A stretch of DNA of 50,636 nt from NCBI GenBank assembly GCA_020723005.1, contig DYJS01000006.1, positions 1 through 50,636 of the forward strand, read 5' to 3'. Below are positions 1-48,360 of this stretch, one piece after another (within the stretch, counting starts at the first letter, position 1; every line of letters starts with the position of its first letter). The stretch is from Candidatus Methylomirabilis sp. Lineage in GTDB: Bacteria > Patescibacteriota > DYJS01. The notes beneath the pieces were generated by a model. The model had not been told where the DNA came from. It ran no database searches and saw nothing but the letters and a program-made list of their open reading frames with translations. A program made the translations under genes and the position numbers.

Positions 1-36
1 TTGTCAAGAGATTTTTTAAAAAATTATTTTTTGAAA

Positions 37-354
37 ATGAAAAATATAGAGATTGAAAAGATTGTTAATGAATTTGCAAAAAATTTTGATGCAGAGGAGA
101 TTTTTATTTTTGGATCTTTTGCTAGTGGAAAATCTCGCAAAGATAGTGATTTGAATCTTCTTGTCATCACTAAAAAAATTTTTGGGACAAAGGAAAAATT
201 TGAAATTGCAAGCAGGATAAATGAAGATTTTCCAGAAATTTTAATCACTCCACTTATTTATGAAAAAAAAGAATTTGAAACTTTGAAAAATATGAACCAT
301 CCTTTAACAATGGAGATTTTGGCAGAGAGCAGTTTAGTTTTTAAAAGTCTATGA
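37..354 (+). CDS. Minimal nucleotidyltransferase (MNT-type, antitoxin-like partner of a HEPN protein)
   Basis: The motif FGSFASGKSRKDSDLNLLV matches the GSxxxG...SDxDL signature of pol-beta-fold NTases. The first ATG is at 37. The TTG at the window edge (1) may be an artefact, so the true start could lie upstream of the window. The gene overlaps the next gene by ATGA. Confidence 0.8.
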   Translation: MKNIEIEKIVNEFAKNFDAEEIFIFGSFASGKSRKDSDLNLLVITKKIFGTKEKFEIASRINEDFPEILITPLIYEKKEFETLKNMNHPLTMEILAESSLVFKSL

Positions 355-842
355 ACAAAAAAATATTTAAAAATTCATCGGAAAAATCTTCTCATATTTT
401 CGGAATTTCTTGGTTTCAACAATCTATTCAAGACTTTGGTGCTTCAGTTTTTCTTCGTAGTGGAAATTTTTTTGAACATTCCTGCTTTATGGCACATCAA
501 TCAACAGAAAAAGCTCTTAAAGGATTTTTGTTTTATTTTGGTTTTCGTGGATTAAAAAAACATAATTTATTGATGCTTGTTTCTCTTACTGAAAAGGTTG
601 ATAAAGGCATAAAAGAAAAAATTTTAAAACAGATTAGTATTTTAAATCAATTTTATCTTTTTTCACGATATCCACTTTTTGATCATGGAAAATTATTAGG
701 TCATGAAACTTTTAACACAGAAGAAAATGCAACAGAAGCGATAAAATCTGCAAAAAAAATCTTTGAAGAGTTGGTTTTATTTTTAGAAGAGAGTGATCGT
801 GAAAAAGTTTGGGAATTTGCAAAAAAACATATAAATGTCTAA
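351..842 (+). CDS. HEPN domain protein (toxin-like partner of MNT)
   Basis: The sequence is an all-helical type with AHQSTEKALKGFL and KKHNLLML motifs and SRYPLFDH (an R-x5-H arrangement), as in HEPN domains. It overlaps the upstream NTase gene by 4 nt. Confidence 0.75.
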   Translation: MNKKIFKNSSEKSSHIFGISWFQQSIQDFGASVFLRSGNFFEHSCFMAHQSTEKALKGFLFYFGFRGLKKHNLLMLVSLTEKVDKGIKEKILKQISILNQFYLFSRYPLFDHGKLLGHETFNTEENATEAIKSAKKIFEELVLFLEESDREKVWEFAKKHINV

Positions 843-13486: not shown

Positions 13487-14998
13487 TTATTCAAAAAATT
13501 TTTCTAAAACTTCTTTGATTTTCTCTTCAATTTCTTCAGTTAAAGCTTTTTCTTTTTCAATTTTTTCAATTAAATCATTAAATTCAGTTTTGACAAAAGT
13601 AATCAACTCTTTTGTTTTGTTAGAAATTTCAGATTGTAAAATTTTATTAAAATATCCATTTATTCCAGCATAAATTAAAACAGAGTGTTGCCAAAGAGAT
13701 CTTGGTTCTCCATTTTTCTGTTTTAAAATTTCCATTAAAATTCGACCTTTTTCAATCTTTTGTTTTGTGGATTCATCAAGGTCTTGCGAACCAAATTGTG
13801 CAAATGCTTCTAGCTCACGAAATTGTGCAAGTTCAAGCTTTAGTTTTCCAGCAATTTTTTTGATAATCTTTGTTTGTGCAGAAGATCCAACACGAGAAAC
13901 AGAGAGTCCAACATTTACAGCAGGTCTTTGTCCTGCATAAAAAAGTGCAGATTCAAGATAAATTTGTCCATCTGTGATTGAAATTACATTTGTTGGAATG
14001 TATGCAGAAACATCTCCAGCTTGAGTTTCAATAATTGGAAGAGCAGTTAAACTTCCTCCTCCTTTGCTTTCTGAAAGTCTTGCAGATCTTTCTAAAAGTC
14101 TTGAATGTAAATAAAAAACATCTCCTGGATAGGCTTCTCTTCCCGGTGGTCGTCGTAGTAAAAGTGATATTTGTCGATAACTTTGTGCATGTTTGGAAAG
14201 ATCGTCAAAAATTATCAAAGCATCTTCTCCTCTTTCCATAAAATATTCTCCAATTGCACAGCCAGTATATGGTGCAAGATATTGCAAAACTGCTGGATCG
14301 GAAGCGTTTGCAGAAACAACAACTGTATTAGCAAAAGCTTTTTTGGATTTTAAAAATTCTACAATTTGTGCAACTTTTGATGCTTTTTGACCAATTGCAA
14401 CATAGATACATTTTACACCAGAATCTTTTTGATTGATGATTGTGTCTAGTGCAATACTAGTTTTTCCACTTTGTCTATCACCAATTATCAATTCTCTTTG
14501 TCCTCTTCCAATAGGAATTAAAGCATCAATTGCAGAAATTCCAGTTTGAAGAGGTGTATCAACAGATTTTCGGAAAATTACACCAGGTGCTTTTTTTTCA
14601 AGTAGGCAATCTTCTCCGTCCGAAACTTTCTCGTTTCCATCAAGTGGATCTCCGATTGAATTTATCACTCTTCCTAAAATTCTTTCAGAAACATTTATTG
14701 AAAGTGTTTTTCCAGTTGCAAAAACTTCGGTTCCAACTTCAACATCACGATCGTCTCCTAAAATTAAAGCCTTTATAGAAAATTCTTCAATGTTTAAAAC
14801 TAAACCTTTTAAAATTTTTTCATTTGCTTGGTTCACAAATTCCACAACTTCATTCATTCCAACAATTTGTTCAATTCCAACAATTTCTGCAACTCCATCT
14901 TTCGTAGAAATAACTTCGCCAGAAATATTTGATTTTTTTAAATCATTTGAATCTTTTGAAAGCAAAGTTTTAACATTTTCGACTAATTTATTTTCCAT
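13487..14998 (-). CDS. atpA: F1 ATP synthase alpha subunit
   Basis: GDRQSGKTSIALDTIINQ (the alpha-type P-loop), ELIIGDR and PAVNVGLSVSRVG match along the full length. Confidence 0.95.
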   Translation of the reverse strand: MENKLVENVKTLLSKDSNDLKKSNISGEVISTKDGVAEIVGIEQIVGMNEVVEFVNQANEKILKGLVLNIEEFSIKALILGDDRDVEVGTEVFATGKTLSINVSERILGRVINSIGDPLDGNEKVSDGEDCLLEKKAPGVIFRKSVDTPLQTGISAIDALIPIGRGQRELIIGDRQSGKTSIALDTIINQKDSGVKCIYVAIGQKASKVAQIVEFLKSKKAFANTVVVSANASDPAVLQYLAPYTGCAIGEYFMERGEDALIIFDDLSKHAQSYRQISLLLRRPPGREAYPGDVFYLHSRLLERSARLSESKGGGSLTALPIIETQAGDVSAYIPTNVISITDGQIYLESALFYAGQRPAVNVGLSVSRVGSSAQTKIIKKIAGKLKLELAQFRELEAFAQFGSQDLDESTKQKIEKGRILMEILKQKNGEPRSLWQHSVLIYAGINGYFNKILQSEISNKTKELITFVKTEFNDLIEKIEKEKALTEEIEEKIKEVLEKFFE

Positions 14999-15002
14999 AT
15001 TT

Positions 15003-15419
15003 TTAGGTTAAATTTTTTAATTGTTTTCTTACACTTTTATCAATTATAATTCCTTTATTTGTTTCCAAAATAACTCCAGCAATAAGAGTTTTGTCTAAAA
15101 CTTCTTTTAATTCAACTTGTTCTCCTAAGACAACTTCTAGGTTGTTTCTTGTTCTAGCTAAAGTTTCTTCTGAAATTTTTACAGGTGTTCGAATTGTTAC
15201 AACAAGTTTTGTAAGATTTGAAAGTTCTTGCAAAACAGATTTTCGCTCTTCATTGCTCAAAGAATCAATTTTTTTGATAGTTTTTCCAACTCCAGATTTC
15301 AAAATTTTTTCCATAACATCGACCAATCCACTATTTATGGCATCAACTAAAACAGAAACTTTTTTTCTGTCCCCAGACAATTTTAATTGCTTAGAAATTT
15401 TTCCAGCTAATTTGCTCAT
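15003..15419 (-). CDS. atpH: F1 ATP synthase delta (OSCP) subunit, short form
   Basis: It lies between atpF and atpA. The C-terminus LIAGVILETNKGIIIDKSVRKQLKNL is delta-like. At 138 aa it is shorter than the usual ~180 aa. Confidence 0.7.
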   Translation of the reverse strand: MSKLAGKISKQLKLSGDRKKVSVLVDAINSGLVDVMEKILKSGVGKTIKKIDSLSNEERKSVLQELSNLTKLVVTIRTPVKISEETLARTRNNLEVVLGEQVELKEVLDKTLIAGVILETNKGIIIDKSVRKQLKNLT

Positions 15420-15438
15420 TGTTTAAATTTTAAAGATT

Positions 15439-15660
15439 TCAAAATTTTGTCTTTATTGGCATTAAATTTTCAATTTTAATAAAAACTTGTTTTAATTTTT
15501 TAAAGTTCTGTAGTGTCCAAACAAATATTAACACAATAATATTAATAAGTTTGAAAACATCTAAAAGATTTGTGTAAGGAGTAAAAATGTAAAATAAAAT
15601 AATTGTTAAAAATGATAAAATAAAAATAGTTAGAAATAAAAATAAAATTTTTTTAATCAT
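15439..15660 (-). CDS. Possible small two-TM membrane protein embedded in the atp operon
   Basis: This 73-codon ORF starts 1 nt after the atpF stop. It is very hydrophobic, but it lies on a T-rich strand where Phe/Ile/Leu-rich ORFs can arise by chance. Confidence 0.35.
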   Translation of the reverse strand: MIKKILFLFLTIFILSFLTIILFYIFTPYTNLLDVFKLINIIVLIFVWTLQNFKKLKQVFIKIENLMPIKTKF

Positions 15661-15661
15661 C

Positions 15662-16183
15662 TTACCCTTTTAATGATTTTATCAGATCTTTTTCTGCTTC
15701 TTCAAGAGATTTTAAAGTTAAATTTTCAATTGTATCATTTGCTGTAGCATTTTTACTCTGTGCGATTAAAATTTTTGCAAAATCTTTGACAAGCTCTTTA
15801 CTGCTTCCAGAAATCATTTTGGAAATTTCATTTTTTGCTTCCTCTCTTGCTTCTTTCAAAATCTTTTCTTTTTCTGCTTGAGCGTCAACTTCTGCTTTTT
15901 TGAAAATTTCATCAAGTTTTGATTTTTGGGAAGAGATAATCTCTTTTGCTTCTTGTTTTGCAGAATTTATCATATTTTCATAAGACTTACGACTTTGCGA
16001 AAGAGCATCTTCTGCTTTTCGAAAGTTTTCTTCCGCATCTTTTTCTTTTTTTTCTTGATCTTCAAACATTTTAATTATTGGTTTGTAGAGAAGTTTTGTG
16101 AGCAAAAACAAAACAAGACCAAAATTTATAAAATACAAAATGAAGTTTGTAAAATTAAATCCAATTTCTTTTAATGCTTCCAT
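15662..16183 (-). CDS. atpF: F0 ATP synthase subunit b
   Basis: It has an N-terminal TM (FILYFINFGLVLFLL) and a long charged helix (EAKEIISSQKSKLDEIFKKAEVDAQAEKEKILKEAREEAK). The operon position supports the call. Confidence 0.85.
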   Translation of the reverse strand: MEALKEIGFNFTNFILYFINFGLVLFLLTKLLYKPIIKMFEDQEKKEKDAEENFRKAEDALSQSRKSYENMINSAKQEAKEIISSQKSKLDEIFKKAEVDAQAEKEKILKEAREEAKNEISKMISGSSKELVKDFAKILIAQSKNATANDTIENLTLKSLEEAEKDLIKSLKG

Positions 16184-16379
16184 TTAAAAATTTTAATTTT
16201 TCAAAAACTTTTTATCTTTATCGTTGCAAGGATTTTGTAAAAATTCGTAGTAATCCTGTTTTTTTTAAATCATTTTGAACCGCTAAAAATTTTTTTAAAA
16301 TCCTGAATTTATTCAAAACGAAAATCCGTTCTGAAAATGATAATTTTGAAATTTATTTAGCAAATACGAAATTTTGTAT

Positions 16380-16601
<222 letters not shown>

Positions 16602-16635
16602 TTAATTTTAAAAATTTTTAATAAACAAAATAAAT

Positions 16636-17475
16636 TTATGCTTTTTCAATCTCCAAAGGAACTTTTTCAGAAAACGAATGATCAGAGACATTCTTTTTTT
16701 CATAAGAATTCTCACTTTCTTCATGTTCGTGTGGGGTTGTTGCAATTTTTATGAAAACAGAGGTTAAAAGTGCAAAAACAAATGCTTGAATAAATCCAAC
16801 AAAAATTTCAAGTCCATAGAAAATTGCAGGAATTCCAACTTTTGTTAATTCTGTCATCACAAGAAGAACAACTTCACCAGCAAAAATATTTCCGAAAAGA
16901 CGAAAACCAAATGATAAAATTTTTGCAAATTCTGAAATAATTTCAATTAATCCAACAAAAAGTTCTGGCCATTTTGCCGGTTTGAAAAGATTTGCCGGAT
17001 TAAAAAATTTTTTAAAATAAGAAAATTTAAGCTCTTTAACACCAAAAAATTGAATTGCCAAAACTGCAAAAAGTGCAATGGCAAATGTTAAATTTATGTC
17101 GCTTGTTGAACCGCGAAAAATTGGAACATGTATATGTTTTCCATGAACTTCGTGAATCACATAGATTGATTCTCCCATTCCTAGAAAAAGTCCAAGCCAG
17201 TTTGAAAAAAGAACGAAAAGAAAAATTGTTGCAAGAATTGGAAAATATTTCTTTGTTTTTTCTTTGTTTTCAATTACTCCGTCAAAAATTCCAAAAAGAC
17301 CTCCAACTATCATTTTCATCAAAGTTTTGAATCTACTTTTTTTCTTTCCAAAAGAAAATTTAAGAGCAATTCCAATAAAAGTAAAGAGAACAACAATTGC
17401 AGAAAGCATTGTGTTGGTGATTGCAAAGTGTCCAATCTCAAAAACATTCCCCGGTGCAATGTGAATTGATTCCAT
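16636..17475 (-). CDS. atpB: F0 ATP synthase subunit a
   Basis: It is polytopic, with LSFGFRLFGNIFAGEV (the conserved Arg helix). It is the first gene of the atp cluster. Confidence 0.9.
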   Translation of the reverse strand: MESIHIAPGNVFEIGHFAITNTMLSAIVVLFTFIGIALKFSFGKKKSRFKTLMKMIVGGLFGIFDGVIENKEKTKKYFPILATIFLFVLFSNWLGLFLGMGESIYVIHEVHGKHIHVPIFRGSTSDINLTFAIALFAVLAIQFFGVKELKFSYFKKFFNPANLFKPAKWPELFVGLIEIISEFAKILSFGFRLFGNIFAGEVVLLVMTELTKVGIPAIFYGLEIFVGFIQAFVFALLTSVFIKIATTPHEHEESENSYEKKNVSDHSFSEKVPLEIEKA

Positions 17476-23086: not shown

Positions 23087-24229
23087 ATGAACTACAAAGA
23101 TTTATCTCTTAAAAAACATCTTGAAAAAAGAGGAAAGATTGAAATTATCAGCAAATTTGGATCTGTAGAGACTCGTGATGATTTGAGTGTTGCATACACA
23201 CCGGGAGTTGCTGGGGTCTCAACTTTTTTGGCAGAACATCCAGAAGAAGCAAAAAATTATTCAATCAAGGGAAATACAATTGCTGTTGTTTCCGATGGTT
23301 CTGCTGTGCTTGGGCTTGGAAATATTGGACCTTTTGGGGCCTTACCAGTTATGGAAGGAAAAGCTTTGCTTTTTAAAGAATTTGGAGGTGTTGATGCTTA
23401 TCCCATCGTTCTTTCAACACAAAATGTTGAAGAGATTATTGCAGTTGTGAAAGCAATTGCACCAACTTTTGGTGGAATAAATCTTGAAGATATCTCTGGA
23501 CCAAGATGTTTTGAAATTGAAGAGAGATTAAAAGCAGAGCTTGATATTCCAGTTTTTCACGATGATCAGCATGGAACTGCAATTGTTGTTTTGTCAGCTT
23601 TGATAAATTCTTTAAAACTTTCTGGAAAAGAAAAGGAAAAAATTAAAGTTGTTGTTTCTGGAAGTGGAGCTGCTGGAATTGCTATTACAAAACTACTTTT
23701 AAAATTTGGTGTAAAAAATATTTTAATGACTGATTCGAAAGGAATTTTATCAAAAGATCGAAGAGATTTGAATCCTGAAAAAATCAAGATGTTAGAATGG
23801 ACAAATTTAGAAAATTTTTCTGGTTCGCTTTCTGATGCAATAAAAGGAGCTGATGTTTTTATTGGTGTTTCTGTTGCTGGAGCATTGAAGCCTGAAATGG
23901 TGAAAACAATGAATGAAAAACCAATAATTTTTGCAATGGCAAATCCAACTCCAGAAATTATGCCAGATATCGCAAAAGAAGCTGGGGCATTTATTGTTGG
24001 AACAGGAAGGAGTGATTTTCCAAATCAGATAAATAATGTTATTGCTTTTCCGGGAATTTTTCGTGGTGCTTTAGATAACGGTGTGAAGCAAATTACGGAT
24101 GATATGAAAATTTCAGCAAGTTTTGCAATTGCAAATTATTTAAGCGAAGATGAACTTTCTGTTGAAAATATTATTCCAAGCCCCCTAGACAAAGGTGTTG
24201 CAGTTGCAGTTTCAAAGGTGATAAAATAA
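23087..24229 (+). CDS. NAD(P)-dependent malic enzyme (short, ~380-aa type)
   Basis: LSVAYTPGVA, VVSDGSAVLGLGNIGP.GALPVMEGKALLFK, INLEDISGPRCFEIE, FHDDQHGTA, GSGAAGIA and ANPTPEI are present. Confidence 0.9.
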   Translation: MNYKDLSLKKHLEKRGKIEIISKFGSVETRDDLSVAYTPGVAGVSTFLAEHPEEAKNYSIKGNTIAVVSDGSAVLGLGNIGPFGALPVMEGKALLFKEFGGVDAYPIVLSTQNVEEIIAVVKAIAPTFGGINLEDISGPRCFEIEERLKAELDIPVFHDDQHGTAIVVLSALINSLKLSGKEKEKIKVVVSGSGAAGIAITKLLLKFGVKNILMTDSKGILSKDRRDLNPEKIKMLEWTNLENFSGSLSDAIKGADVFIGVSVAGALKPEMVKTMNEKPIIFAMANPTPEIMPDIAKEAGAFIVGTGRSDFPNQINNVIAFPGIFRGALDNGVKQITDDMKISASFAIANYLSEDELSVENIIPSPLDKGVAVAVSKVIK

Positions 24230-44391: not shown

Positions 44392-44718
44392 ATGACATTC
44401 GCAACATTTGAAATTTTTGGACGACAATATAGAGCAACAGAAGGAGATATCCTTTTGGTTGAAGCACCAAATGCAGAGAAATTTTCTGATAAAAAAGGTG
44501 AAAAACTTTTCTCTGATCCAATTCTAATAGAAGATCAAAATTCTGTTTTTGTTGGTTCTGATGCAAAAAAATATAAAATTTCCTTAGAAGTGGTTGGTTT
44601 TTTTAGATCAAAAAAAATCAATACAAAGAAATTTAAACAGAGAAAAAGATATAGAAAATTTATTACAACAAGAAGAAGTTTTGTAAAGTTTAAAGTGAGT
44701 AAAATTGCAAAAAGCTAA
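44392..44718 (+). CDS. rplU: 50S ribosomal protein L21
   Basis: FEIFGRQYRATEGDILLVE and the basic C-terminus match L21. A good SD (AAGGAG) lies upstream. Confidence 0.85.
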   Translation: MTFATFEIFGRQYRATEGDILLVEAPNAEKFSDKKGEKLFSDPILIEDQNSVFVGSDAKKYKISLEVVGFFRSKKINTKKFKQRKRYRKFITTRRSFVKFKVSKIAKS

Positions 44719-45454
44719 ATATATATCTTTTTTTTCATATAAAAATGAGTCTATAAACTCATTTTTTTCTATTTCATCTTCTTTCTTTTTGTCTCAAAAT
44801 GGAAAAAAAGTTCTATTTGTAGATCTTGGAACAGAAAATTTCTCTAATGAAATTTTTCAAAAATCAAACGATTGGTTAGAATCAATAAATACCCAAGAGA
44901 ATCTTACAAACTTCATTCAATCAACAACAGAACCAAATTTAGATATTTTAATTTCCAACCAAGAATTAAGAAAAAAAATTCTTACAAAAATGGAAGAAGA
45001 GAGTTCAAATATATTTACATCTGGTCCAATATATTTTTTTAAAGAAAAATTTGAAGATGAAGAGATTTCAAACTTTTATGACTTTGTCATTTTCAATCTT
45101 CCTCAAGATATTGATATGATAACAGCAGGAGGGCTAACATCAAGTTCAGAAATGATAGTTTTAATAGATCTTTTTAATTCTCCAATTATAGAAGCCTTTT
45201 CAATTTCAATGGGAATTTTAAACTTAATCAGAGAAAGATTTAATAGAGATTTAATATTTTCTAAATCGATTCCAATTGTTTCAGAAAAGAGATCATTTGA
45301 AGAAACTTCACAAGAACATCTTCTAAATCAACTTTTTTCTGGAAAGATTTCAAAAAAGTTTTCTTTTTCATCACAAAAAACAAATAGATCAACATTTTTC
45401 GATAATCTTGGAAAACCAATAAAAATTATAGAAGATTTTTCTTTTTTATTTTAA
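44705..45454 (+). CDS. ParA/Soj/MinD-fold protein with degenerate (apparently inactive) ATPase motifs
   Basis: It is collinear with ParA. KYISFFSYKNESINSFFSISSSFFLSQNGKKVLFVDLGTENF aligns to kIIai.nqKGGVGKTTta.nLa..La..GkkVLliDlDpQgN. NLDILISNQEL aligns to nLdllPan.dL. FYDFVIFNLPQ aligns to yDyiiiDcPP. FFDNLGKPIKIIE aligns to ea.s.GkPi..yd. The start is a TTG overlapping rplU by 14 nt. Confidence 0.65.
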   Translation: MQKAKYISFFSYKNESINSFFSISSSFFLSQNGKKVLFVDLGTENFSNEIFQKSNDWLESINTQENLTNFIQSTTEPNLDILISNQELRKKILTKMEEESSNIFTSGPIYFFKEKFEDEEISNFYDFVIFNLPQDIDMITAGGLTSSSEMIVLIDLFNSPIIEAFSISMGILNLIRERFNRDLIFSKSIPIVSEKRSFEETSQEHLLNQLFSGKISKKFSFSSQKTNRSTFFDNLGKPIKIIEDFSFLF

Positions 45455-45471
45455 AAAATTAAATTAAAAAC

Positions 45472-45645
45472 ATGGCAAACCCATCAAAATCAAAAAAACC
45501 AACACAAGTTGTAACTTTGAAATCAACGGTTTCAAATTATGTTTATCAAGTTTTTAAAAATGTTAAAAAACAAAAAGAGAAACTTGAAATGAAAAAATAC
45601 GACCCAACGACAAGAAAACATGAAATTTTTAAAGAAAAGAAATAA
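45472..45645 (+). CDS. rpmG: 50S ribosomal protein L33 (Cys-less form; not in ORF track)
   Basis: My own translation is MANPSKSKKPTQVVTLKSTVSNYVYQVFKNVKKQKEKLEMKKYDPTTRKHEIFKEKK. It matches the L33 pattern ...Y.t.KN......kLelkKYcp..rkH..hkE.K, with the zinc-binding Cys replaced. Confidence 0.8.
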   Translation: MANPSKSKKPTQVVTLKSTVSNYVYQVFKNVKKQKEKLEMKKYDPTTRKHEIFKEKK

Positions 45646-45781
45646 TTTTTTAAAAAATTTAACTTCTCAAAAATAAAAATTTCTAATTTAAATTTATAAT
45701 TTTGTTTAGATTACAAGTTTTTAAAATATAAAAGCTTTTATAGAAAGCATTGTTAAGTTTATTAAAAATCTTTTTAATATG

Positions 45782-45855
45782 TGGAGCTGAGCGGAGTCGA
45801 ACCGCTGACCTTCTGCTTGCAAAGCAGACATTCTAGCCAACTGAACTACAGCCCC
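45782..45855 (-). tRNA. tRNA-Ala (anticodon TGC)
   Basis: The hand-folded sequence is GGGGCTG TA GTTC AGTTGGCTA GAAT G TCTGC TTTGCAA GCAGA AGGTC AGCGG TTCGACT CCGCT CAGCTCC A. The G3:U70 Ala identity pair is present. CCA is not encoded. Confidence 0.92.
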
Positions 45856-45973
45856 AAAACAGAGTTTTTCTAGAAAAAAAATTTTTAAAAACAAGTTTTT
45901 CATAAAAATTCTAACTCATTGCTCAAAATAATTGTTCGTTTCGTTATTGAAAAAATAAATTTTTCTAAATACA

Positions 45974-46183
45974 TTGAAATTGAAAAAAGTAGTTATGAAA
46001 ATTTTTAGCAAAACAAATACAAAAATAAATTTTACAACAAGAGCAATATCAAAAAGACATGAAAACAGATTTCCAACAACAATTGAAAACAAAAGAAGAT
46101 CAATTTCAGATGCAATTTTTAAAATTGAAAGAATAGATCCAAGTCTAAAAATAGACTTTACAAAAACAATTAGAACTGCATAA
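45974..46183 (+). CDS. Possible small basic protein, unknown
   Basis: This is a 69-codon ORF (TTG start; ATG at 45995). It is Lys/Arg/Thr-rich with no motif I recognise, and it could be non-coding. Confidence 0.25.
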   Translation: MKLKKVVMKIFSKTNTKINFTTRAISKRHENRFPTTIENKRRSISDAIFKIERIDPSLKIDFTKTIRTA

Positions 46184-46196
46184 AATTTTCTATTTT

Positions 46197-47777
46197 CTAT
46201 TTTCTATTGAATTTTGAATTTTGAATTTTTCCAACAGCTTGAGCGATATTTTTAAAACCATCTTTTTCTAAAAGTTCTACTAATTCAGAATTTATATTTG
46301 AAATTATTGCAGGACCACCAAAAATCATTCCAGTAATCATTTGAACAGCACTTGCTCCAAGCAAGATTTTTTGATATGCATCTTTTCCAGAAAAAATTCC
46401 ACCAACTCCTATGATTTTAATTTTATTACCAAATTCTTGAAAAGTTTTTTCAATCAAAAAATTTGAATTTTTTTCAGTTGGTTTTCCAGAAAAATTTCCA
46501 GATTTTCCTTCAAATTTTTTTAACTCTTGTGAATCAAAATTTTTATCACGAGTTTTGTAAAGATTACTTAAAATAACAGCAGAAACTTTATATTTAATTA
46601 AAATTTTTATCAAAATTCTTGCATCGCTCCAAGAAATTTCATTTGGAAATTTTACAGCCAAAGGTCTTTTAAGATTTATTTTTGAAAGTTTTGATAAAAT
46701 ATCTTCTAAATCTTTTGGTTTCTGTAAATTTCCAGAACCAAGAACATTTGGACAAGAGATATTAAGTTCAAAATATGCAAATTTTTCTGCATTTTTATGA
46801 GTATTTAAAATTTTAAAACTTTTTACAATATCATCAATTTGTGCTTTTGTGTCGCAAACGCTTGGAGAGTTTGTTGCACCAATAGAGATTCCAATTTGAA
46901 AATTTTTATCAGAGAATTTTATATTTTCTAAAACTTTTTGAATTCCTAAATTTTTAAATCCTTTATTTACAAAAAGTGATTTTGATTTTGGAAGACGACC
47001 TAAACGAGGTTTTTCATTACCTTGGCATGAAGAAAAAGTAGTTGTTCCAACTGAAGAAAAACCAAAACTGATTGAACCTAAAATTTCTGTTAAATTTCCA
47101 TTGTAATCAAATCCTGCCGAGAGACCAACTGGAGATAAAAATTTTCTATTAAATAAATCCAATTCTAATTTTTTGTTTCTTTGGACAAAGATATCTTGTA
47201 AAATAAATTTTATTAACTTACCTTTCCCAAAAAAATTTCCAATCCAAATAAAAGCTTCATGAACTTTCTCTGCATCAAAAAGAAAAAGAATAGGTTTGAT
47301 AAAATTTTTATATAAAAAAACATAAAAAGGAATAAAATAAAAAAGATTTATTAAAAAAATCATTGTTGCAGAAATTGCTTGTATAACACAATAAAAACAA
47401 AATGTATGAAGAACAAAAGCTTCAATTCCAGTTAAATACATTGAAAATAAAAAACCAAAAATTGAAGCGAAAAAAACTGGATCAAATTTTAAAAAATCTT
47501 CAAATTTTTTAATCTTTTTTGGAAAAAAATTTTTTAAAATTAAATAAATAATTATTCCACCATAAAAAATCATTCCTAAAAATGGCATAGAAAGAAATTT
47601 GTTTTGGATATTTCCAAGATGAGAATACTCTGACATTCTAACAACATCACAACCAACTATTCCGTCTTTACTAACTGGACAGAAATCAACATTACTATTT
47701 TTTGCATACGATGGAAAAAGATATGCTGAAGCAAAAAATCCAACAGATGCAAAAATAATAAGCAAGATTTTCTTCAT
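46197..47777 (-). CDS. pyrD: Fusion protein: N-terminal VKOR-family (vitamin K epoxide reductase-like) membrane domain + C-terminal dihydroorotate dehydrogenase
   Basis: The N-terminal ~170 aa has a TM helix, a loop with C-x9-C then VVRMSEYSHLG, and SMYL...FCFYCV (CxxC in a TM helix, nt 47388-47399); these are the VKOR hallmarks. The remainder is DHODH: LFDAEKVHE, SPVGLSAGFD, QGNEKPRLGRL, NKGFKNLG, ELNISCPN, IGVGGI and GASAVQ. The ATG at 47777 (MKKILLIIF) is preferred to the TTG at 47840. Confidence 0.8.
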   Translation of the reverse strand: MKKILLIIFASVGFFASAYLFPSYAKNSNVDFCPVSKDGIVGCDVVRMSEYSHLGNIQNKFLSMPFLGMIFYGGIIIYLILKNFFPKKIKKFEDFLKFDPVFFASIFGFLFSMYLTGIEAFVLHTFCFYCVIQAISATMIFLINLFYFIPFYVFLYKNFIKPILFLFDAEKVHEAFIWIGNFFGKGKLIKFILQDIFVQRNKKLELDLFNRKFLSPVGLSAGFDYNGNLTEILGSISFGFSSVGTTTFSSCQGNEKPRLGRLPKSKSLFVNKGFKNLGIQKVLENIKFSDKNFQIGISIGATNSPSVCDTKAQIDDIVKSFKILNTHKNAEKFAYFELNISCPNVLGSGNLQKPKDLEDILSKLSKINLKRPLAVKFPNEISWSDARILIKILIKYKVSAVILSNLYKTRDKNFDSQELKKFEGKSGNFSGKPTEKNSNFLIEKTFQEFGNKIKIIGVGGIFSGKDAYQKILLGASAVQMITGMIFGGPAIISNINSELVELLEKDGFKNIAQAVGKIQNSKFNRK

Positions 47778-47895
47778 ACAATTTTTTACAAAAAAAAATC
47801 TAAGAAAAAAATTTTTAAATTCAAAAATAAAATATAACAAAAATTTACTTGACTTTTTTCCTAAATATTTGAGTTTTATCGTGTTAAATTAGATT

Positions 47896-48360
47896 TTGAA
47901 AAAAACTGCTACAATAGTAAAGATTGCTTTATTAAAAGATTTGCCTTTAGTTGGAAGAAAAGGACAGGTTTTAGATGTTAGATCTGGGTTTTTCAGAAAT
48001 TTTCTTGCACCAAATGGATTAGCTGTAAAAGTTGAAAAAAATATCGTTGTTACAATAAATAAAGAGAAGAAAGAATCAGATGAAAAATTTATAAGAAAAT
48101 TGAAAAAATCAAAAATTTCTTTATCAAAAATTTCTGAAAATGAGATTGTTTTTGAAAGAAAAGCAAAAAAAGATGGAGACCTTTTTGGTTCTGTTTCTCT
48201 TTCCGATATTAAAACAGAAATTGAAAAAATTATCTCTTCAGAACTTCCACCTCACATCTTAGATGATATAAAACCTATTAAAAAAATTGGTTCATATACA
48301 TTCCCTATTATGTTTTTAGGAGAAGAAATTCAATTAAAAATTTTAGTCAAACCTTTTTAA
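47896..48360 (+). CDS. rplI: 50S ribosomal protein L9
   Basis: VKIALLKDLPLVGRKGQVLDVRSGFFRNFLAPNGLAV is the L9 N-domain. A long helix and a C-domain follow. The start is a TTG. Confidence 0.85.
   Translation: MKKTATIVKIALLKDLPLVGRKGQVLDVRSGFFRNFLAPNGLAVKVEKNIVVTINKEKKESDEKFIRKLKKSKISLSKISENEIVFERKAKKDGDLFGSVSLSDIKTEIEKIISSELPPHILDDIKPIKKIGSYTFPIMFLGEEIQLKILVKPF

Follow-up and report, generated by a model that had tools for sequence, protein, structure and literature searches.

A recurrent fusion of a predicted VKOR domain to a class-2-type dihydroorotate dehydrogenase in Patescibacteria

One open reading frame (ORF) near the end of a contig assigned to Candidatus Methylomirabilis sp. (DYJS01000006.1, assembly GCA_020723005.1; Patescibacteriota in GTDB) appeared to join a membrane domain of the VKOR type to a dihydroorotate dehydrogenase (DHODH). 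It raises the questions of whether the fusion is real, what each half is, and how electrons would move through such a protein. The whole stretch of DNA analysed, here called the window, is 50,636 nucleotides long and AT-rich (GC ~26%). An initial annotation of the window had described an uninterrupted 526-codon ORF at 46197-47777; the ORF list agrees and adds the strand (minus), which had not been given. The start codon is ATG. An in-frame TTG upstream at 47840 would add 21 residues (547 aa), but in the alignment it is at the ATG, with its MKK, that the homologues begin, and not at this codon. The features of the gene are as follows.

46197-47777, minus strand: VKOR-DHODH fusion ORF, 526 aa plus stop codon, from the ORF list; both Pfam domains lie above their gathering thresholds.
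47334-47777, minus strand: VKOR domain (aa 1-148) with transmembrane (TM) helices at aa 2-26, 64-84, 100-122 and 128-146, and an outward loop carrying a short helix at 42-48, assigned from PF07884, the profile match, the AlphaFold2 (AF2) model and charge.
47649-47681, minus strand: loop cysteine pair C33...C43 (FCPVSKDGIVGC), predicted to be extracytoplasmic, assigned from conservation and register with the loop cysteines of Synechococcus VKOR.
47388-47399, minus strand: CxxC redox motif C127-F-Y-C130 at the outer end, or start, of TM4; invariant, and aligned to CMYC of Synechococcus VKOR.
47187-47333, minus strand: DHODH N-terminal helices alpha1-alpha3 (aa 149-197), the putative class-2 membrane and quinone-tunnel module, assigned from the E. 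coli alignment, AF2 and the invariant Y156, K161, F165 and H173.
46200-47186, minus strand: flavin mononucleotide (FMN) alpha/beta-barrel of DHODH (aa 198-526), assigned from PF01180 and Foldseek.
47103-47114, minus strand: G222-F-D-Y225, with Tyr in place of the conserved Lys of the class-2 'AAGxDK' motif, assigned from the E. coli and H. pylori alignment; Y225 is invariant.
46746-46763, minus strand: active-site motif N339-I-S-C342-P-N344, in which Cys stands where class-2 enzymes have the catalytic Ser (NISSPN in E. coli, NLSSPN in H. pylori), assigned from the alignment to both.

The VKOR-DHODH fusion was confirmed as a real, conserved gene in a subclade of the Patescibacteria, a group that also goes by the name candidate phyla radiation (CPR). 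A second copy of 526 aa (P0001), 99% identical, is present on a 63-kb contig of an independent NCBI assembly (GCA_973415815.1). A survey for recurrence of the architecture had been proposed in the initial annotation, and local hidden Markov models (HMMs) identified both domains in frame in 53 of the 125 relatives retrieved. The fused relatives are 508-581 aa long, show 40-55% identity, and were found on independent contigs in NCBI, JGI, ENA and Logan. Residue conservation was read from an alignment of 34 fused homologues (38-55% identity), in which the junction residues Y156, K161, F165 and H173 are invariant. A frameshift, mis-assembly or chimera joining two neighbouring genes could also yield such an ORF; split, adjacent VKOR and pyrD genes are known in a relative, so a lost stop codon could imitate a fusion. 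However, an ORF of identical length recurs on the independent assembly, the fused homologues of independent samples keep the junction in frame, and AF2 models the junction with high confidence. Given the near-identical copy and the number of relatives with both domains, chance or artefact is for practical purposes excluded.

Further fused genes were present in GTDB species representatives (L009-L011), and in the metagenome sample 5 of the 16 CPR-type loci among the matches listed were fused, a fraction that is indicative only. The GTDB and metagenome scans are samples and not a census, and the matches listed were mostly ordinary class-2 or class-1 DHODHs. Two of the GTDB representatives (L010, CAZBTU010000025.1; L011, CAZNKS010000003.1) are metagenome-assembled genomes (MAGs) titled 'uncultured Pseudomonadales bacterium' that carry the CPR-type fusion with Tyr and Cys at 35-36% identity, which points to a wrong taxonomic label or to contaminated bins.

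The two genes were also found together without being fused. A VKOR gene of 166 aa lies 112-160 bp upstream of the closest unfused DHODH (P0014, 57% identical), on the same strand; such split, adjacent VKOR and pyrD genes occur in loci L004 and L005. In locus L002 a VKOR gene adjoins a DsbA gene 3.4 kb from pyrD. No VKOR was found within 4-6 kb of the other unfused CPR and DPANN DHODH loci examined. The occurrence of VKOR and DHODH as a fusion, as split-adjacent genes and as nearby genes supports a functional linkage between them. A neighbour-joining tree of the DHODH domain, calculated without support values and including some 'unfused' entries that may be truncated genes, required five parsimony changes; the fused groups were basal, with a 64-member unfused clade nested among them, next to the group that holds the window's protein. 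Fission of a fused gene and repeated fusion are both possible histories, and a single origin is not established by the tree. The closest RpoB relative of the organism (86% identity, GCA_054682915.1, L172 17079-23378) keeps the rpoB-rpoC-L21-AAA_31-L33 synteny with window positions 44392-48360; downstream it carries a methyltransferase, a metallo-beta-lactamase-fold gene and small ORFs in place of the tRNA-Ala, the fusion gene and L9. The position or presence of the fusion gene is therefore labile between close lineages.

The N-terminal half shows all the sequence and structure characters of a VKOR, and thiol:quinone oxidoreductase activity is predicted for it. Pfam VKOR (PF07884) matched aa 5-144 with 67.8 bits (cutoff 27.5). 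VKOR was not detected by a phmmer search of the PDB with the whole protein; a profile of the domain was required, which matched Synechococcus VKOR (4nv6, E=7.6e-18), human VKORC1 (6wv3, 5e-8) and also a fish VKOR-like protein, and placed the four cysteines and the serine in register with solved VKORs. The loop cysteines C33 and C43 are conserved in at least 90% of the fusions and are invariant in an 18-sequence VKOR alignment with standalone VKORs. S49 of the S49-x-Y-S segment is likewise conserved in at least 90% of the fusions, the S112-M-Y114 motif is present and conserved, and C127-F-Y-C130 is invariant in the fusions and in standalone relatives. Hydropathy and the AF2 helices describe a four-TM bundle, with block-mean predicted local distance difference test (pLDDT) values mostly at least 90 over the TMs. 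The hallmarks read by the initial annotation (the loop cysteine pair, S-x-Y-S, SMY and CFYC) were thus recovered across the fused homologues, all four cysteines included.

The C-terminal half is a DHODH of class-2 architecture. Pfam DHO_dh (PF01180) matched aa 204-503 with 180.4 bits; a check with this profile and PF07884 had been suggested in the initial annotation, and both are above threshold. The NCBIfam model TIGR01036, 'dihydroorotate dehydrogenase (quinone)', matched aa 158-517 with a score of 214.8 (cutoff 200). The best NCBIfam models were all named 'quinone-dependent dihydroorotate dehydrogenase', and the narrower equivalogs NF003651 and NF003652 were below their cutoffs. Assignment to class 1A or 1B was rejected: class-1 NCBIfam models reached 73-85 bits against cutoffs of 269-301, PDB matches to class 1A had E ~1e-16 versus 1e-39 for class 2, and an N-terminal extension is present. 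Foldseek gave TM-scores (target) of 0.94 for full-length M. tuberculosis DHODH (8ofw), 0.93 for the H. pylori enzyme (6b8s) and 0.87-0.90 for human DHODH. The full-length DHODH with a class-2-type N-terminal segment, as originally described, was confirmed at aa ~155-519 by TIGR01036 and by an alignment that begins at E. coli residue 2.

Among the residues that do not vary in the 34 fusions are H173 and R261, which correspond to E. coli H19 and R102, together with N271, N339, N344, N405 and the second class-2 Lys, K376, each matched to its counterpart in E. coli. We take the counterparts of H19 and R102 to be class-2 quinone-site residues and the Asn counterparts to be pyrimidine-binding residues. 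As these His, Arg and Asn residues all correspond to class-2 sites and do not vary, the substrate is most likely still dihydroorotate; the N-terminal module is retained. Two active-site characters of class 2 are absent, the base being C342 instead of Ser and the conserved Lys being Y225. C342 is present in at least 90% of the fusions, and the equivalent Cys is invariant in unfused members of the clade. Cys is the class-1 base, and class-II enzymes use Ser 'with few reported exceptions' (PMC8520639). From the Cys at the Ser base position, the enzyme was therefore filed as a class-2-architecture Cys variant and not as canonical class 2.

The Tyr and Cys combination was present in 122 of the 125 relatives, and every VKOR fusion falls inside this Tyr+Cys subclade. 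Across all fetched loci (L001-L107), nested active-site combinations occur: Lys+Ser (49 loci), Lys+Cys (26) and Tyr+Cys (25). Lys+Cys loci include other CPR, DPANN archaea such as L015, L017 and L022, and some Bacteroidota such as L052 Aquimarina, L060 Kordia and L070 Rikenella. Some of the Bacteroidota genera with the Cys type are understood to be aerobic, so the Cys is not a simple marker of anaerobes. The flavin chemistry or acceptor preference of the derived DHODH may differ from that of E. coli PyrD. Quinone as its physiological acceptor is doubtful a priori, since CPR are reported to lack quinone synthesis and one fungal Cys-type enzyme uses no quinone.

The AF2 model of the fusion had a mean pLDDT of 91.6 and a predicted template modelling score (pTM) of 0.89. 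In the model, a break of two residues separates TM4 (128-146) from the DHODH helices 149-164, 169-185 and 187-197, which lead into the barrel; in the alignment, residue 156 of the fusion matches residue 2 of E. coli DHODH. The initial annotation had placed a further TM helix after the VKOR domain, which these helices and this alignment do not support: there are four TMs, not five. The density of Lys and Arg, calculated over 33 fusions, was higher at the N-terminus (0.33) and in the TM2-3 loop (0.26) than in the Cys loop (0.05) and the TM3-4 loop (0.10). The positive-inside bias and TM parity predict that the N-terminus is inside, the cysteines outside and the C-terminus inside, with a cytoplasmic DHODH, as a computational topology check envisaged in the initial annotation would have it. 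An inverted VKOR topology, as reported for some archaea, was rejected on charge bias and helix parity.

Helix counts in relatives point the same way. Sister architectures found with the VKOR domain were VKOR-DsbA, VKOR-DsbA-Rhodanese and VKOR-thioredoxin, in keeping with the initial annotation, to which only bacterial VKOR fusions to thioredoxin-like domains were known. In all 18 VKOR-DsbA/Trx relatives, TM4 is followed by exactly one more hydrophobic helix, which sends the partner to the outside. In the DHODH fusions the number of added helices is zero or two, the two apparent exceptions being DHODH alpha1 itself, and with this even parity the DHODH stays cytoplasmic. The two-helix form is a subgroup of 576-581 aa (P0006-P0013; example locus L089 9018-10757) with a ~55-residue insertion between VKOR TM4 and DHODH alpha1 (alignment columns ~193-250), which contains two hydrophobic helices and brings the total to six TMs. 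A three-domain VKOR - DsbA/Thioredoxin_4 - Rhodanese protein of 527-574 aa, with one TM after VKOR TM4 and a sulfurtransferase-like third domain, was also recurrent (P0130, P0144, P0146, P0161, P0167, P0173, P0185, P0191, P0212 and P0222).

Compared with known bacterial VKORs (Synechococcus VKOR-thioredoxin 3KP9/4NV2/4NV6, M. tuberculosis VKOR and plant LTO1), the fusion shares the four-helix core and, in register, the outward loop cysteine pair and Ser and the CxxC at the start of TM4; its predicted role is also theirs, to relay electrons to quinone from a partner with a thioredoxin fold. It differs in that the fused partner is a cytoplasmic flavoenzyme and not an exported thioredoxin or DsbA, in that the fifth TM of the VKOR-DsbA/Trx relatives is missing, and in that no DsbA-like partner was found nearby. 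With class 2 DHODH (E. coli PyrD 1F76, H. pylori 6B8S, M. tuberculosis 8OFW and human) it shares a full-length alignment, the N-terminal His/Arg module and the FMN barrel. In contrast to these enzymes, it has Cys for the Ser base, Tyr for the Lys ('AAGLDK' in E. coli) and a covalent tether to a polytopic membrane protein, and N405 is followed by Leu instead of the Thr of E. coli PyrD.

The fungal Cys-type class-II DHODs (ArUra9, SjUra9 and DbUra9; PMC8520639) have the same class-II architecture and Cys base, and occur in respiration-free organisms or conditions. They are unfused to VKOR and of independent origin from the CPR enzyme; moreover, ArUra9 works with free flavins and no longer has the N-terminal quinone module (PMC8520639), whereas the CPR enzyme keeps the module with its His and Arg. 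A further likeness is offered by giant-virus VKOR modules, in which VKOR adjoins an epoxidase-desaturase and is likewise coupled to a quinone- or quinol-using membrane enzyme (PMC13486548). By analogy, this case suggests that a VKOR can be half of a local vitamin-K-type redox module, although there the genes are separate, the partner, host and chemistry are different, and the VKOR is proposed to supply quinol (PMC13486548).

No described VKOR-DHODH fusion was known to the initial annotation, and none was found in openly searchable full text, a search that did not extend to subscription journals or InterPro architecture tables. Targeted look-ups found no mention of it in a VKOR phylogeny paper, a 2026 VKOR-module paper, a quinone-distribution survey or a CPR ecology paper. 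Source annotations that name these proteins use only 'dihydroorotate dehydrogenase (subfamily 2)' or 'quinone-dependent dihydroorotate dehydrogenase'; a MAG of Candidatus Roizmanbacteria is one such case. Such automated names hide the VKOR half, and the finding corrects the annotation.

To address what the protein would do, functional roles were inferred from sequence, structure prediction and family knowledge. VKOR and class-2 DHODH are both quinone reducers, so neither half can oxidise the other unless one runs backwards. The reading we prefer as the more parsimonious, at about even odds, is that both halves, each in its usual direction, reduce one shared and probably scavenged quinone. On the inside, dihydroorotate would reduce FMN, and FMN the quinone, serving pyrimidine synthesis; on the outside, a DsbA-like dithiol would pass electrons through the loop cysteines and the CxxC to quinone, serving disulfide formation. 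With the predicted topology, the two redox sites reach the same membrane patch from opposite leaflets. The shared quinone would be scarce, and probably scavenged from a host because CPR genomes reportedly contain no quinone biosynthesis. Fusion would anchor the DHODH, set a 1:1 stoichiometry and keep both sites at the quinone. The route of quinol reoxidation would lie outside the protein, with O2, a quinol oxidase where present, or host-linked chemistry as candidates.

Several observations support this proposal of parallel quinone reduction. The canonical VKOR direction is favoured by the sister VKOR-DsbA fusions and VKOR-DsbA gene pairs, and a pyrimidine role by nucleotide-metabolism genes near several loci (NrdD in L089; dUTPase and NDK in L002; dCMP deaminase in L004). 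The conservation of the redox cysteines and of the quinone-site and pyrimidine-site residues across the 34 fusions suggests that selection acts on both halves. A number of points weigh against it. Fusing two parallel quinone reducers brings little obvious benefit, fusions more often joining consecutive steps, and the scheme names neither a quinone source nor a quinol sink. Neither a DsbA-like partner nor a CxxC thioredoxin-like ORF was found within the 50-kb window, and neither adjoins the other fused genes examined. The Cys base and the Lys-to-Tyr change deviate from canonical class 2, and the fungal Cys-type class-II DHODs are respiration-independent, one using no quinone (PMC8520639). Microgenomates-type CPR genomes are reported to have no respiratory chain or terminal reductases (PMC7143001), and CPR to have no quinone biosynthesis genes, even where they carry a bo3 quinol oxidase (PMC8407418). 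The initial annotation had raised the possibility of an organism without a respiratory chain, and this fits: RpoB comparison puts the organism in the Patescibacteria/CPR, a group that reportedly lacks both the chain and quinone biosynthesis (PMC7143001, PMC8407418).

The same deficits can be read as favouring coupling in series, with the VKOR reversed: electrons would pass from dihydroorotate through FMN and a local quinone to the CxxC and loop disulfides, and on to an extracytoplasmic disulfide acceptor. With single halves lacking a sink in such a host, only a series scheme is self-contained; the fused, split-adjacent and nearby arrangements suggest direct coupling, and all fusions are confined to the Tyr/Cys DHODH subclade. 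The fungal Cys-type class-II DHODs are the ones that work without respiration (PMC8520639). From orotate/dihydroorotate (~-250 mV) to DsbA-like disulfides (~-120 mV) the overall reaction is downhill, so the converse idea in the initial annotation, in which the VKOR cysteines would take up the electrons of dihydroorotate, is allowed thermodynamically as a whole, if improbable. However, with menaquinone the step from quinol to CxxC is uphill or neutral, and we know of no VKOR or DsbB that runs from quinol to disulfide in vivo. Related VKORs pair with DsbA, an oxidative partner. Pyrimidine flux would greatly exceed the need for periplasmic reductant, hence a catalytic external oxidant would still be required. 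In addition, many Tyr/Cys DHODHs belonging to this clade stand alone, with no VKOR within 4-6 kb, and Cys-type class-2 enzymes also occur in Bacteroidota genera understood to be aerobic. On balance we judge a series arrangement to be rather unlikely. If true, it would be a self-contained transmembrane electron outlet that frees pyrimidine synthesis from respiration, and it could export reducing power. In this it would resemble DsbD/CcdA, which likewise link a cytoplasmic donor to extracytoplasmic thiols, by an unrelated route: they have no sequence or fold kinship with the fusion, and DsbD uses thioredoxin/NADPH and a cysteine cascade, with no quinone or flavin.

The initial annotation had preferred the opposite flow, from exported thiols through VKOR to quinol and on to the DHODH flavin, with orotate or another acceptor as electron sink; fumarate or O2 could be such acceptors, and DHODH would act as terminal oxidase of the disulfide-forming pathway. 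The fusion and the missing respiratory chain fit this scheme, a class-1-like Cys base might point to fumarate or a similar second substrate, as in class 1A, and DHODs show low oxidase activity (PMC8520639). It is nevertheless strongly disfavoured thermodynamically and very unlikely, because DHOD-bound FMN, with quoted values of -242 to -330 mV (PMC8520639), lies far below menaquinol (~-74 mV) and ubiquinol (higher still): two-electron transfer from quinol to FMN would be at least 170-250 mV uphill, and orotate (~-250 mV) is a still worse acceptor. Among the fungal Cys-type enzymes, ArUra9 made no use of fumarate (PMC8520639), and the invariant pyrimidine-binding Asn counterparts suit ordinary dihydroorotate oxidation. 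A role of the VKOR half as a membrane anchor for DHODH, with no redox function, would agree with the start of DHODH directly after TM4 and with the N-terminal membrane anchor of eukaryotic class-2 DHODHs (their targeting is described in PMC8520639). A mere anchor would not keep its cysteines, and the four Cys and the loop Ser are kept across fusions that are just 24-47% identical in the VKOR domain; unfused clade members, for their part, do without an anchor. This role, too, is very unlikely.

The neighbours of the fusion gene are those given in the initial annotation, a tRNA-Ala(tgc) at 45781-45855 and the gene for ribosomal protein L9 (rplI) at 47896-48360. The absence of an adjacent pyr gene had been taken to argue for a non-canonical role. 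This argument is weak, because the neighbourhoods of the fused genes are unconserved and the aligned pyrimidine-binding Asn positions are invariant. In seven fused loci searched for DsbA, pyr and quinone genes, no recurring neighbour was found around the fused gene. Pfam annotation of the remaining contig showed housekeeping content, including rpoBC, ribosomal proteins, F-ATPase, glycolysis and SecY. At positions 1-842 (plus strand) of the window, mapped from locus L008 15730-16535, a nucleotidyltransferase gene (PF01909/PF18765) and an adjoining HEPN gene (PF05168) make up a pair of the kind typical of HEPN/MNT toxin-antitoxin modules. F-type ATP synthase genes (a, c, delta and alpha) and malic enzyme were identified at 13487-17475 (minus strand) and 23087-24229 (plus strand); in a presumed fermenter, these bear on membrane energetics without a respiratory chain.

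The fusion itself is real and recurrent, and it probably encodes a bifunctional, integral-membrane enzyme. Two textbook dependents of respiratory quinone, VKOR/DsbB and class-2 DHODH, are joined in a lineage that reportedly has neither quinone biosynthesis nor respiration. A Tyr/Cys subclade of class-2-type DHODH is thereby defined in CPR, a parallel to the Cys-type class-II enzymes of anaerobic fungi, which work independently of respiration. The finding raises the questions of where the quinone comes from, where the electrons go, and whether disulfide formation is coupled to pyrimidine synthesis in these organisms, and a single clonable, experimentally tractable gene could address them.

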